DNA of 7,172 nucleotides, from the IMG/VR virus record IMGVR_UViG_2660238126_000006; one strand, given 5' to 3'. Numbering within the stretch: the first letter of the stretch is position 1; every line of letters starts with the position of its first letter. The translations under genes were made by a program, and so were the position numbers. A model generated the notes under the pieces. The model saw nothing but the letters and a program-made list of their open reading frames with translations. It was not told the DNA's origin and searched no databases. Source of the DNA: a virus (lineage: Duplodnaviria > Heunggongvirae > Uroviricota > Caudoviricetes). Positions 1-7,172 of this stretch are shown here, piece by piece.

Positions 1-66
1 ATGTTAATTGCATGTATATCATTTGGGGTTGCGATGACGACGAACACGCATTTTAGAGGTGAAGAA

Positions 67-620
67 TTGAAGAAGGTTTGGCTTAACCGTTATCCCGCGG
101 ACGTTCCGACGGAGATCAACCCTGACCGTTATCAATCTCTGGTAGATATGTTTGAGCAGTCGGTCGCGCGCTACGCCGATCAGCCTGCGTTTGTGAATAT
201 GGGGGAGGTAATGACCTTCCGCAAGCTGGAAGAACGCAGTCGCGCGTTTGCCGCTTATTTGCAACAAGGGTTGGGGCTGAAGAAAGGCGATCGCGTTGCG
301 TTGATGATGCCTAATTTATTGCAATATCCGGTGGCGCTGTTTGGCATTTTGCGTGCCGGGATGATCGTCGTAAACGTTAACCCGTTGTATACCCCGCGTG
401 AGCTTGAGCATCAGCTTAACGATAGCGGCGCATCGGCGATTGTTATCGTGTCTAACTTTGCTCACACACTGGAAAAAGTGGTTGATAAAACCGCCGTTCA
501 GCACGTAATTCTGACCCGTATGGGCGATCAGCTATCTACGGCAAAAGGCACGGTAGTCAATTTCGTTGTTAAATACATCAAGCGTTTGGTGCCGAAATAC
601 CATCTGNCANNTNNNNTTTC
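67..620 (+). CDS. fadD: Long-chain fatty-acid--CoA ligase FadD, N-terminal ~185 codons (3' truncated at breakpoint near 617-621)
   Basis: Frame-1 translation from TTG at 67 reads [31 protein letters not shown]... which I recognise as E. coli FadD. GAGG lies 8 nt upstream of the TTG. Masked bases 607-616 keep the frame (HL-XXXX-S fits FadD HLPDAIS); homology ends at ~621. Confidence 0.85.
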
Positions 621-869
621 ACAGAGATGGGTATGTACCCACGTATCCGGATATTCTTCTTTCAGGCGTTGCGCCATCGCCATCTGTTCAGGAGATGAGG
701 TCGGGGCGAAGCGTGGCGTAATCGCATATAGCAGACGACCATTTTTGTGCCAGCGTTCAATCAGTTCTTTGCTTTGGTGATAGCTGCTTTCGGCAGTGTC
801 GAGCAGATAATCCGGTGCGTTGCGGTCCATCATCACCTTACCGGCAATCATACGCATATTGATATGACT
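619..869 (-). pseudogene. guaD: Guanine deaminase internal fragment (both ends missing)
   Basis: Minus-strand translation [84 protein letters not shown] matches my recollection of an internal region of E. coli GuaD. No N-terminal amidohydrolase region or C-terminus is present. Boundaries are +/- ~5 nt. Confidence 0.65.
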
Positions 870-1190
870 GCTTCAACGTGCTTGTCGGTCACCAGCAGGT
901 TCAGCTTACGCTTGGACATCACAGTGTATTCCAGATTCAGGCGCGAGAATTCGTACAGGGTAATGTGATGCTGTAGGTATTCACGCCTTAATAACCCCCT
1001 CTTTCAGCCAGATAACCTGTGTTCTCGCCATACCTTCCAGCGCGCATTCTTTTGCATATGCAGCATCGACTTGCTTGGCATGCCCTTTACCGGCAATCTT
1101 CTGTATGCGCTAAACCTAGATAGAATCCACTCTGTGCACATTGAAGCCCCCTCTATGCTTCCTTTCAGGTATTGAAGGGATTGAGATGGG
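870..1190 (-). other. Unassigned segment with two orphan ORF ends: a C-terminal fragment (981-1109, ...[37 protein letters not shown]) and a gene start (870-919, [17 protein letters not shown]...) cut at the guaD breakpoint
   Basis: Minus-strand reading only. Stops in all three minus frames at ~1105-1130. About 65 nt separate the stop at 981-983 from the ATG at 917-919. I could not recognise either product. Confidence 0.3.
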
Positions 1191-1538
1191 CTAAGCATTA
1201 TTGGCCTCCTGCATCAGGAGAAAGACAATCATGGCGGCGCGGAGAGGTCTGGTATCAAATATTGGGCTTACGCCTTTTGCATCCACACACCATTCAGTTA
1301 ACTGGTCTAAGATAGAAATCCTGTATTTCTCAATAATCGGCCATGAAGCGCTCGGATCATTGCAGTAGTCAGGCAAAGGGTTTAATGGCTCAAGACTTAC
1401 ATCGGCATTTCCGTAATACCATTTGTTGGTGTTATTCCCTGATGTTTCAGGCTTACATGCCCAAAGGCCTTTAAAAATTATGTCTCCTACCATTCGGTTA
1501 ATTTCAAAATCACTTAACTGTGAATAATCCATTGTCAT
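1191..1538 (-). CDS. nin-region protein, NinX-like (P22-type), function unknown
   Basis: 115-codon ORF ([34 protein letters not shown]...). Its ATG overlaps the ninE stop as ATGA (1535-1538), and the position directly after ninE matches the P22 nin gene order. Family name is from memory, not a search. Confidence 0.6.
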
Positions 1539-1711
1539 TTCCTCGCACGATGTCTTAGCCACCGGATATCCCACAGGTGAGCCGTGTAGTTGAAGGTTTT
1601 TACGTCAGATTCTTTTGGGATTGGCTTGCGTTTATTTCTGGAGCGTTTCGTTGGAAGGTATTTGCAGTTTTCGCAGATGATGTCGGTGAAACTTCGTCGC
1701 TGTCGCCTCAT
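1535..1711 (-). CDS. ninE: NinE
   Basis: [58 protein letters not shown] is near-identical to lambda NinE as I recall it. Start overlaps the methyltransferase stop as ATGA at 1708-1711. Confidence 0.85.
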
Positions 1712-2235
1712 GCCGCCCTCCTGACGCCCTGCCCGATCGCCATCAATGCCGCTTTGGATACGGTAGTAAACATCCGTCGAGGACTGATGAACGGTCGCCA
1801 AATCAGCAGCATGGAGCCTTTGCTGTTTCCCTTCTTCTCCAGCCCTGTCGATGGTTCGATAAAATTAATCCGTCCATCAGTGATAATGCGAACTTCGTCG
1901 ACACTCTCCAGAGCCTTGCTGAACCATCCGACTGACATATCCTCTGGCACAAGCATAACTACCGTCTGTCGCTGTTGTATGCACTGCTCAGCGGCTTTTT
2001 TCACCCACGGCCTGATATTGCTGTACGGTGGGTTATTCCAGATTGCACCGTGGCTTACCCACTCAGAATTGAGCGCGTCGTCGGCCTCAGTTAGCCAGTG
2101 AGCACACAGAGCATTTTTGTCGCTCGCTGCCGAATCCAGCCAGAATCCAAACTCAATATCCAGTGCATCAAAAAGCCAAAGCGGCGTTTGCCAGCAGTCC
2201 TTGTCGTGTGCTGGCGTATTTGATTTGATAGTCAT
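1708..2235 (-). CDS. Phage Dam-family N6-adenine DNA methyltransferase (orphan; no restriction partner in window)
   Basis: 175 aa from [48 protein letters not shown]...[18 protein letters not shown]. The NPPY motif (motif IV) and overall pattern fit phage Dam-type methyltransferases. Start overlaps ninB stop as ATGA (2232-2235). The longer upstream ORF start at 2295 was rejected in favour of the coupled ATG. Confidence 0.8.
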
Positions 2236-2672
2236 GCAGCCCGATCTCCCCATCTCGCTTTCCATTCCAGAGCCAGTCTCGCTTCGTCTGACCACTTAAC
2301 GCCACGCTCTGTACCGAATGCCTGTATAAGCTCTAATAGCTCCGCAAATTCGCCTACACGCATCCTGCTGGTTGACTGGCCTATTACCACAAAGCCATTC
2401 CCGGCAAGGTTAGGAACAACATCCTGCTGCTTTAATGCTGCGGTAAACACACACTTCCAGCTTTCTGCATCTAGCCAGCGACCATGCCATTCAACCTGAC
2501 GAGAGACGTCACCTAAGCAGGCCCATAGCTTCCTGTTTTGGTCTAAGCTGCGGTTGCGTTCCTGAATGGTTACTACGATTGGTTTGGTTGGGTCTGGAAG
2601 GATTTGCTGTACTGCGTGAATAGCGTTTTGCTGATGTGCTGGAGATCGAATTTCAAAGGTTAGTTTTTTCAT
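2232..2672 (-). CDS. ninB: NinB (Orf recombination mediator)
   Basis: MKKLTFEIRSPAHQQNAIHAVQQILPDPTKPIVVTIQERNRSLDQNRKLWACLGDV... is essentially lambda NinB. A GGGGGAGAGGGAAG RBS precedes the ATG. Confidence 0.9.
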   Translation of the reverse strand: MKKLTFEIRSPAHQQNAIHAVQQILPDPTKPIVVTIQERNRSLDQNRKLWACLGDVSRQVEWHGRWLDAESWKCVFTAALKQQDVVPNLAGNGFVVIGQSTSRMRVGEFAELLELIQAFGTERGVKWSDEARLALEWKARWGDRAA

Positions 2673-2687
2673 GACTTCCCTCTCCCC

Positions 2688-6082: not shown

Positions 6083-6447
6083 GCCTCCATCGCTTTATCC
6101 GGTTTGTCGGTGTTACTGCCCTGACCGTTCTCTCTGTGACGATGGCCGTTATAGGCAAGCCGCATCGCTGACATGGTGGTGCCGCCGGAGTCGCACAGGT
6201 CTTTCACCTGTCCGGTCACTTCCAGGTCCATTTCAAAACGTGCTCTGGGCGCATTGCGAAACGTGATCGTTTTACCTGCACCGTCCACCACGATCCCCTC
6301 CCGGGTCAGCGTCACAGACTGCCCCTGATCGTCATAGACAGCCACCTCACCCGTCTGCAGCCCTTTCAGGCGGTAGCGCCGGTCCGACACCGTAACAACC
6401 ACCGCATGAGAACGGTCGCCATCCGGAAACAACACCACCGCTTCCGC
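6079..6447 (-). CDS. Baseplate assembly protein V-like (spike), C-terminal ~122 codons; 5' end lost at breakpoint with N's at 6448/6450
   Basis: ...GLQTGEVAVYDDQGQSVTLTREGIVVDGAGKTITFRNAPRARFEMDLEVTGQVKDLCDSGGTTMSAMRLAYNGHRHRENG... is gpV-like, and its position before GP46 and J matches the Mu-type baseplate order. The first 9 codons of the track ORF are beyond the breakpoint. Confidence 0.55.
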   Translation of the reverse strand, partial: AEAVVLFPDGDRSHAVVVTVSDRRYRLKGLQTGEVAVYDDQGQSVTLTREGIVVDGAGKTITFRNAPRARFEMDLEVTGQVKDLCDSGGTTMSAMRLAYNGHRHRENGQGSNTDKPDKAMEA

Positions 6448-6450
6448 NCN

Positions 6451-6575
6451 TCGGCACCTGCAATTACTGCACATACGGTGAGAAACAAAATAGCAGATAA
6501 TTTATGTTTAACCTTTCCTTGTTGTCGTATATCAGGGATCACTGAAATATAATCAAGCAAACTTTGAATACTCAC
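6451..6575 (-). mobile_element. ISAs1-family (H-repeat-associated) transposase, N-terminal 41 codons only, GTG start
   Basis: (V/M)SIQSLLDYISVIPDIRQQGKVKHKLSAILFLTVCAVIAGA matches the conserved N-terminus of E. coli H-rpt/ISAs1 transposases as I recall it. AGGA lies ~6 nt upstream of the GTG. Truncated at the N's. Confidence 0.7.
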
Positions 6576-6646
6576 CTGGGTCCTTTTTTATCTTTTTAGT
6601 TATTCCAAAGGTTAAATTTTGATCACCTGTAGGCGTTAAAGCCAAG

Positions 6647-6678
6647 ATGAAAATCGTGATTTACATCACAATTTTCAT
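6647..6678. repeat. 32-bp imperfect palindrome: ATGAAAATCGTGAT-TTAC-ATCACAATTTTCAT (14-bp arms, one mismatch, 4-bp spacer)
   Basis: Read directly from the sequence. It lies between the AT-rich ORF stop (6756) and the H-rpt start (6575). No U-tract follows on either strand, so it does not look like a canonical intrinsic terminator. Confidence 0.8.
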
Positions 6679-6755
6679 GATCTTGCCCTGCCCCGTCCCT
6701 TGCTCTCATGTCTTTCTGTATGTATTTTATATTTTTCTCTTTCTGGTGTTGTTCA

Positions 6756-6983
6756 TTATGACCATTTACCAATCCAGTCAAAAACTTCATTTTTCAAATT
6801 GTTATCATAATAATCAACATCGTAATAGTCTCCATAATTAATTATTTTATAACTAGCCTTCTTGTTTTTATCACTAAAATACACCCGTTGTTTTTTAGCG
6901 CAGAACTCCATATTCTCCAGTTTACTAATGTTTTTTAATCGCACGCTATAAAGAATATCATTGAAAAAATTAAGATTTATATC
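6756..6983 (-). CDS. AT-rich ORF of unknown function, 5' end cut at the paaJ breakpoint; possible internal start at 6909-6911 (51 aa) with GGAG RBS
   Basis: Minus frame reads ...[75 protein letters not shown]. Codon usage is AT-rich and unlike the flanks. I could not recognise the product. Confidence 0.4.
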
Positions 6984-7172
6984 ACCCAACGCCTGGGCCG
7001 CGAACGCTTCGTTCAGTTCAATCACGTCCATATCGTGAATACTCAGCCCCGCGCGTTCCAGCACCCGGCGAGTTGCAGGCACCGGACCAAGCCCCATCAG
7101 GCGCGGTTCCACCCCGGCGGTTGCCATGGCTACGATTCGCGCCCGCGGTGTCAGTCCTTGCGCTGCTGCCAT
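6984..7172 (-). pseudogene. paaJ: Beta-ketoadipyl-CoA thiolase PaaJ-like internal fragment (63 codons; runs off window edge; C-terminal catalytic region absent)
   Basis: [62 protein letters not shown] matches my recollection of E. coli PaaJ. Homology stops at ~6984, where GC content drops sharply. Confidence 0.65.

Follow-up and report, generated by a model that had tools for sequence, protein, structure and literature searches.

Chimeric misassemblies of the relocation or translocation type, which scaffolders, gap closers and contig-merging tools produce in draft bacterial genomes, switch abruptly between near-perfect matches to distant loci. They carry ambiguous bases exactly at the switches, including the single N's that are often put where an overlap is assumed, and have joins that are unique to one record and numerous within a contig. 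The window described here (the whole stretch of DNA analysed, 7,172 nucleotides) resembles them in all of these features, and differs from them in that its joins are unusually dense for such errors (~1 per 1.3 kb) and that some of its pieces are of 86–254 bases. Chimeras formed by library ligation or multiple-displacement amplification are like the window in joining unrelated sequences with 0–3 bases of microhomology; unlike these, the window has N-marked superpositions as long as 15 bases, distant or other-replicon partners and high consensus quality, none of which suits an origin in rare molecules. Natural mosaics of the DLP12/lambda type share with the window the module set rusA'-ybcO'-ninX-ninE-dam-ninB-ren-P-O-cII-cro', collinear in many E. 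coli, and the ybcO remnant is such a mosaic's natural scar within the window's prophage block. In contrast to these mosaics, the seven joins of the window are intragenic rather than at module boundaries, and connect to housekeeping genes of the chromosome and to one gene of a plasmid.

Source record and segmentation

The window corresponds to bases 7362–14533 of CCBV01000109.1, a public draft contig of 32,784 bases (assembly GCA_000936365.1) from an E. coli whose core alleles are phylogroup-B1-like and which has a plasmid marker of the ETEC type, and is the exact reverse complement of source-contig locus L009:10001–17172. No literature on the source contig was found in searches by accession. 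Segments were delimited by local blastn against fetched parent loci and by megablast against 5,426 complete E. coli genomes.

Eight segments of 86 to 4,187 bases make up the window (Table 1), and each gave one ungapped blastn alignment, at 98.7–100% identity, to an ordinary E. coli locus, with sharp, abrupt alignment ends at the segment boundaries. Because the matches are ungapped at this identity and several segments agree with strains E2863/E2865 at 100% identity, the sequence inside the segments is taken to be of high quality and the breaks between them to be abrupt. The segments derive from a plasmid, the chromosome and two distinct prophages. Adjoining segments have parent loci that are separated by megabases or belong to different replicons; E2865, for example, carries glnS at 0.79 Mb, paaJ at 1.95 Mb and guaD at 3.91 Mb. 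A preliminary description had regarded the window as a composite of unrelated fragments joined in mid-gene, and this was borne out: the parents are distant, the joins are unique to this record, and all 14 within-window segment ends fall in annotated CDSs or pseudogenes, as that description had held for every segment. This last count is simply what randomly placed breakpoints would give at ~88% coding density. The surrounding 20.4 kb of the source contig is the same sort of collage: it consists of at least 16 segments, and holds internal scraps of pgk, cpdB and the plasmid gene traT in addition to that of the essential glnS. In three partly mapped flank pieces of the contig (L009 5922–6396, 8603–9976 and 18160–18334), the cpdB and traT fragments are the parts that could be named.

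Table 1. Segments, genes, joins and cross-join gene calls, in window coordinates
Feature	Position	Strand	Remarks
Segment 1: fadD (long-chain-fatty-acid-CoA ligase)	1–621	+	66 upstream bases and about the first 185 codons
Segment 2: guaD (guanine deaminase), internal fragment	617–870	-	254 bases; 100% identity to E2865 guaD
Segment 3: glnS (essential glutamine-tRNA ligase), internal fragment	871–956	-	86 bases
Segment 4: DLP12/lambda-type prophage early-right block	956–5142	-	98.7%; all genes on minus strand
rusA, 5' end	956–984	-	Segment 4; annotation of reference locus L001
ybcO/DUF1364 remnant	981–1070	-	Segment 4; L001 annotation
ninX	1191–1532	-	Segment 4
ninE	1535–1711	-	Segment 4
Dam-type N6-adenine methyltransferase	1708–2235	-	Segment 4
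ninB	2232–2672	-	Segment 4
ren-like ORF, 96 aa	2746–3036	-	Segment 4
P	3033–3734	-	Segment 4
O	3731–4630	-	Segment 4; ori iterons 4199–4283
cII	4663–4956	-	Segment 4
cro, 3' end	5075–5142	-	Segment 4
Segment 5: bufB (DUF692/MNIO bufferin maturase), internal fragment	5144–5276	+	133 bases
Segment 6: Mu-like prophage baseplate genes	5278–6447	-	99.7% match to reference locus L006
Baseplate J/gp47, N-terminal 130 codons	5278–5667	-	Segment 6
gp46, complete	5654–6079	-	Segment 6
Baseplate assembly protein V, C-terminal part	6079–6447	-	Segment 6
Segment 7: ISAs1'/ydcD'	6451–6984	-	99.8% match to chromosome of ETEC strain 120899
ISAs1 (H-repeat) transposase pseudogene, 5' 125 bases	6451–6575	-	Segment 7; followed by spacer
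ydcD, C-terminal 77 codons	6756–6988	-	Segment 7
Segment 8: paaJ (thiolase), internal fragment	6983–7172	-	100% identity to E2865 paaJ
J1 fadD/guaD	607–621		15-base superposition; 7 N's at the 7 parent differences, 8 called bases at agreements
J2 guaD/glnS	870–871		Blunt, no N
J3 glnS/prophage	956		1-base overlap, no N
J4 prophage/bufB	5143		Single N; left parent T, right parent G
J5 bufB/baseplate	5271–5277		N's at 5271 and 5277, parents disagree at both
J6 baseplate/ISAs1	6448–6450		N-C-N; N's at two disagreements, C common to both parents
J7 ydcD/paaJ	6983–6984		2-base overlap, no N
Spurious FadD' fusion, 259 aa	1–780		Gene call across join
Spurious baseplate-J' fusion, 173 aa	5146–5667		Gene call across join
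Spurious ISAs1/V fusion, 131 aa	6079–6474		Gene call across join
Spurious PaaJ'-'YdcD fusion, 138 aa	6756–7172		Indexed in a large protein collection

The fadD segment is a 99.7% ungapped match to its reference locus (L002), with clear alignment over 1–609 and sequence legible through the N's as far as 621, and runs 148 bases past the left edge of the window in the source contig (L009 16564–17320). The glnS piece aligns at 98.9% over 89 bases (871–959) to both E2865 and 120899. In complete E. coli genomes the bufB fragment occurs in 62 places in 59 genomes, on plasmids only, many of them from ETEC strains. The paaJ fragment measures 210 bases in all (L009 9981–10190), and its outer end, 20 bases beyond the window, is another N-marked join (N's at L009 9977–9980).

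Prophage segments

Over 20 complete E. coli genomes match bases 956–5142 in a single alignment without gaps, and the boundaries at 956 and 5142 were recovered again with other prophages as comparators. The preliminary description had set a breakpoint at 1110–1190, which did not hold: the block begins at 956 and is collinear through this region, which consists of a natural ybcO (DUF1364) remnant and the intergenic spacer upstream of ninX. The block is natural and internally intact, and the genes within this 4.2 kb and the gp46 gene of the baseplate segment are real. A junction shared with other phages and lying at or near a gene boundary, as in natural mosaics, was found only at the ybcO remnant region (~981–1190); J3 lies in mid-rusA and J4 in mid-cro, and both are unique.

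Structure of the seven joins

The remaining breakpoints that had been proposed all correspond to joins, with some adjustment. Those at 5143, 5271–5277 and 6448–6450 were placed correctly, each with its N's, and the N-free one near 6983 was confirmed as a 2-base overlap. The break given as 617–621 is genuine and spans 607–621 rather than 617–621 only; that near 869 is likewise genuine, at 870/871, and leads not into the phage block, as had been supposed, but into the 86-base glnS piece, which had been missed.

All 12 N's of the window (607, 610–611, 613–616, 5143, 5271, 5277, 6448 and 6450) fall in four clusters, every one at a join, in agreement with the earlier observation that N's mark four of the joins; the chance of this for randomly placed clusters is ~8e-8. 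Across the 20.4-kb locus, nine of nine N clusters sit at segment boundaries. At the five joins for which both parents are known, every N (20 of 20) occupies a position where the parents disagree, and 10 of the 12 called bases between N's are at positions of agreement (p = 4e-5). At J5, three of the five bases between the N's are agreements and the other two follow bufB, so that these conflicts were resolved to one parent rather than to N. This pattern is the signature of a consensus merge, the N's behaving as they would if two contig ends had been superposed and their strict consensus taken. A conventional scaffold gap is an uninterrupted run of N's between correctly ordered contigs; here called bases stand between the N's (as in CTGNCANNTNNNNTTTCA), and in no genome are the flanks neighbours.

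The N-free joins (J2, J3, J7 and the fadD/pgk join) are blunt or overlap by 1–3 bases. IS ends, target-site duplications and inverted or flanking repeats were absent from every join, and joining by mobile elements or repeats was rejected on the ground that no repeats flank any join; the sole IS sequence in the window is the 125-base 5' ISAs1 stub, itself truncated by J6. An attachment-site reading does not apply, as the window contains no tRNA genes. Inspection by eye revealed no restriction site, linker, shared palindrome or adaptor at the joins. False joins through shared k-mers in a de Bruijn graph are unlikely, since the parents share at most 5–6 bases at any join.

Searches for the joins in other sequences

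The preliminary description had proposed that the segments be searched separately and checked for adjacency. By megablast with the window and with join-spanning sub-windows, none of the 5,426 complete E. coli genomes held any adjacent pair of segments together in this arrangement. The exact join strings tested were absent from viral, species-representative-genome and metagenome collections: a 40-mer across J2 from all three, the J3 string from metagenome contigs, the J4, J5 and J6 strings from 2.9 million viral contigs, and the J7 string from a collection of genome contigs. J7 yields an in-frame PaaJ'-'YdcD ORF of 138 aa, which among ~15 billion proteins is encoded on exactly one contig; exact look-up of the ORF at 1004–1198 of the window in the same protein collection returned no match.

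Origin of the joins

The window is very probably a stretch of misassembled draft contig in which eight unrelated fragments were chained computationally after contig building. On this reading, contig ends would have been abutted or superposed by 0–15 bases without real overlap, and the consensus would have retained a base where the two ends agreed by chance and written N at conflicts. We infer that the joins come from a scaffolding, gap-closing or contig-merging step, because such tools typically write a single N where an overlap is assumed and leave short gaps partly filled. The preliminary description had left the choice between a sequence that is chimeric or scaffolded and a locus rearranged to an extraordinary degree, with any fusion to be treated as an artefact meanwhile; the former is favoured because the joins are unique, the source contig is a collage, a plasmid-only bufB scrap stands between two prophage fragments, and the N's behave as a consensus of contig ends. 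Three points temper this reading: a real junction present alongside intact parental copies would likewise leave N's at a join, were the consensus re-called from mixed reads; the two conflicts at J5 were settled for one parent; and the 86- and 133-base fragments are unusually small for independent contigs.

That small size, the pieces of 86–254 bases being of fragment or read rather than contig size, would be accommodated if the joins were physical and had been made in vitro, by ligation or template switching during library preparation or whole-genome amplification, and then assembled faithfully; the N-free joins, with their 0–3 bases of overlap, also look like blunt ligation or microhomology switching. 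This origin is nevertheless improbable. The segments are essentially free of errors and indels, pointing to deep coverage at which rare chimeric molecules should be outvoted, and N's at conflicts over 3–15 bases resemble two superposed consensus ends rather than the read-through of a single molecule. In amplification, chimeras usually form with inverted sequence close by and not with distant loci or another replicon, whereas the partners here are megabases apart or on other replicons.

It is highly improbable that the arrangement existed in vivo, as a shattered and re-stitched locus of the isolate built from duplicated chromosomal, prophage and plasmid scraps. Nothing speaks positively for it, the PaaJ'-'YdcD fusion being in frame by chance. 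Against it stand the 20 kb made up of at least 16 segments drawn from random loci and replicons, scraps of essential or central genes (glnS, pgk) of which intact copies must exist elsewhere, the absence from every join of a signature of recombination or of a mobile element, ambiguous bases precisely at the joins, and the failure to find the joins in the 5,426 complete genomes or their strings in the broad collections. Were the joins real, they would call for a chromothripsis-like event or a fragment-capturing process, with end joining of dozens of 0.1–4 kb scraps at little or no homology, a prospect just as far-fetched. Natural mosaicism of a lambdoid with a Mu-like prophage as the source of the phage-to-phage joins (5143–6450) is effectively refuted: lambdoid phages are highly mosaic and the window's block differs by 1.3–2.5% from every reference prophage examined, but cro, bufB and the baseplate J and V genes are cut in mid-gene, the scrap lying between the two phage pieces is known only from plasmids, and the join strings occur in neither the 2.9 million viral contigs nor any complete E. 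coli genome.

Consequences

Under the favoured explanation of computational misassembly, the fusions and gene neighbourhoods across the seven joins are, judged from the sequence, not real, and four spurious proteins have been called across joins of the GenBank contig (Table 1). The value of the finding is one of data hygiene only. This record would mislead any scan for novel operons, gene fusions or phage-host gene neighbourhoods, and the rule that N's appear only where the two flanks disagree provides a cheap, read-free flag for false joins.

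Segment structure of the window

Segments were defined by separate searches of the remaining parts of the window and by local alignment to fetched parent loci, i.e. the normal E. coli locus of each piece. By these alignments and megablast, the window consists of eight ungapped segments, 98.7–100% identical to parents that lie far apart; E. coli strain E2865, for instance, has glnS, paaJ and guaD at 0.79, 1.95 and 3.91 Mb, respectively. Parent-locus annotation placed every segment end inside a gene or pseudogene, so the preliminary description of unrelated fragments joined mid-gene was right in substance. 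The best coverage of the window by any single place in 5,426 complete E. coli genomes (megablast) was 58%, which corresponds to one prophage block (segment 4). The bufB piece, from the MNIO/DUF692 bufferin maturase gene, is located between lambdoid and Mu-like fragments; in the complete genomes it was found only on plasmids, at 62 places in 59 of the 5,426, many of them ETEC.

Segments of the window and their parent loci
Segment	Window positions	Strand	Parent content	Identity
1	1–609 (readable through N's to 621)	+	fadD upstream region and first ~185 codons	99.7%
2	617–870	-	guaD, internal	100%
3	871–956	-	glnS, internal, 86 bases	98.9% over 89 aligned bases
4	956–5142	-	lambdoid block	98.7%
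5	5144–5276	+	bufB/DUF692, internal	one mismatch, an N
6	5278–6447	-	baseplate J', gp46, 'V	99.7%
7	6451–6984	-	ISAs1' and 'ydcD	99.8%
8	6983–7172	-	paaJ, internal	100%

Each of the seven joins was examined with a query for which a genome with both neighbouring segments together would show more coverage than was observed. For every join the adjacent segments were together in 0 of the 5,426 complete E. coli genomes (megablast). For the six joins from guaD–glnS onward, exact strings were searched in one or more broad collections. The guaD–glnS string was absent from 2.9 million viral contigs, 185,579 species (one genome each) and 241 million metagenome records, the glnS–prophage string from metagenome records, the prophage–bufB, bufB–baseplate and baseplate–ISAs1 strings from viral contigs, and the ydcD–paaJ string from species-representative genomes.

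Sequence at the joins

Each parent was extended across its join and compared with the window base by base. The 12 N's of the window form four clusters (607, 610–611 and 613–616; 5143; 5271 and 5277; 6448 and 6450), all at joins, as had been noted; four random clusters would all fall within 8 bases of a join with a chance of ~8e-8. The fadD–guaD join (607–621) reads CTG-N-CA-NN-T-NNNN-TTTCA, in which the 7 N's are exactly the 7 differences between fadD and guaD and the 8 called bases are positions of agreement, the 15-base "overlap" being 53% identical. The pattern recurred at an entE–metI join outside the window, where all 8 N's lie at the 8 disagreements and the 3 interior bases at agreements. 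The baseplate–ISAs1 join is N-C-N, with the C common to both parents; prophage–bufB is one N, T versus G; and at bufB–baseplate both N's lie at disagreements, with two more disagreements resolved to bufB. Over these five joins with both parents known, N's stand at parent disagreements in 20 of 20 cases, and 10 of the 12 called bases between N's stand at agreements versus 25% expected (p = 4e-5). Joins free of N's are blunt (870/871) or overlap by 1–3 agreeing bases (956, 6983–6984 and fadD–pgk). The N pattern is that of a consensus from two superposed sequence ends without genuine overlap.

The guaD parent carries CTTCAA, the hexamer with which the glnS piece opens, four bases past its breakpoint (window 866–880). 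This is possibly gapped microhomology used by a merging step, or a coincidence, with a probability of roughly a few per cent across all joins.

Source contig

The ydcD–paaJ join creates an in-frame 138-aa ORF, which by exact look-up was found, among ~15 billion proteins, on a single contig, CCBV01000109.1 of assembly GCA_000936365.1 (32,784 bases). The window corresponds exactly, as the reverse complement, to positions 10001–17172 of L009, a stretch of this contig (record positions 7362–14533). The collage continues throughout the 20.4 kb examined, with at least 16 segments and all nine N clusters at segment boundaries. The pieces run fepB-entC-entE', 'metI-metQ-rcsF-trmO', a 475-base piece, 'ggt-yhhA-ugpQ', ~1.4 kb that includes a fragment from within cpdB and codons 1–96 of the plasmid gene traT, then the eight window segments, 'pgk-epd', a 176-base piece and 'efeU-efeO-efeB; in the flank pieces at L009 5922–6396, 8603–9976 and 18160–18334, the cpdB and traT fragments were the parts named. 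These two fragments lie outside the window at L009 8750–9043 and 9685–9996 and encode, respectively, 94 internal residues of CpdB and residues 1–96 of TraT; the TraT piece ends 20 bases from the right edge of the window, at a join marked by N's. The window edges (1 and 7172) are the starts of called, chimeric genes and not contig ends: the fadD piece continues for another 148 bases on the left until it joins pgk/epd, and the paaJ piece for another 20 on the right.

The core segments match the bovine strains E2863 and E2865 at 100% identity, and the ydcD piece matches Gambian ETEC strains at 99.8%; the source isolate was probably a B1-like ETEC. No literature on the accession of the contig was found.

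Origin of the joins

Within segments the window is free of indels and often identical to natural alleles, which indicates good coverage of the contigs from which it was built, with the errors arising when these were chained. Parents have no more than 5–6 bases in common at any join, which speaks against a shared-k-mer graph error, and no repeats, IS ends or target duplications flanking the joins, nor tRNA genes, were found. On these grounds the joins are attributed to scaffolding, gap closing or contig merging after assembly, a step that would have forced contig ends together and written N at conflicts. Programs of this kind typically leave a single N where an overlap is presumed and fill short gaps only in part.

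Chimeric molecules formed in vitro by ligation or amplification would account for the blunt and microhomology joins and for the very short pieces, but they fit poorly with the N pattern and with the high consensus quality. Real rearrangement in vivo is very improbable: it would require no fewer than 16 random fragments, drawn from three kinds of replicon and in part from the essential gene glnS, to be joined without any recombination signature in an arrangement seen in no other genome, and ambiguous bases to coincide exactly with the joins. Natural mosaicism among phages accounts for the interior of the prophage block only.

Genuine and spurious genes

The sequences of the prophage block and of gp46 are ordinary and widespread. 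The block, in the order rusA', ybcO remnant, ninX, ninE, Dam-type methyltransferase, ninB, a 96-aa ren-like ORF, P, O, cII and 'cro, aligns collinearly and without gaps to over 20 complete genomes and to several further prophages. A breakpoint proposed at 1110–1190 is therefore not a join; window 981–1190 holds a ybcO (DUF1364) remnant lacking its N-terminus and a ~120-base spacer upstream of ninX, a natural deletion scar common to many DLP12-type prophages. The glnS scrap that follows the join at 870/871 had been missed, and the start of the prophage block is at 956. Four lambda-type ori iterons in the O gene (4199–4283; CCCTCGTTTTGAGGGATA-like, spaced 20–24 bases), followed by an A/T-rich stretch, form the origin that is usual for a lambdoid replication module.

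Four ORFs that cross joins (window 1–780, 5146–5667, 6079–6474 and 6756–7172) are artefacts, in support of the earlier caution that apparent fusions be treated as such. All four figure in the gene calls of the public contig, and the 138-aa PaaJ'-'YdcD fusion has been indexed in a large protein collection, where it clusters with YdcD fragments. With these minor corrections the composite nature of the window is confirmed, and it is not a biological feature. Its value is as a flag on a faulty public record and as a simple, read-free signature of false joins, namely N's at conflicts between parents.
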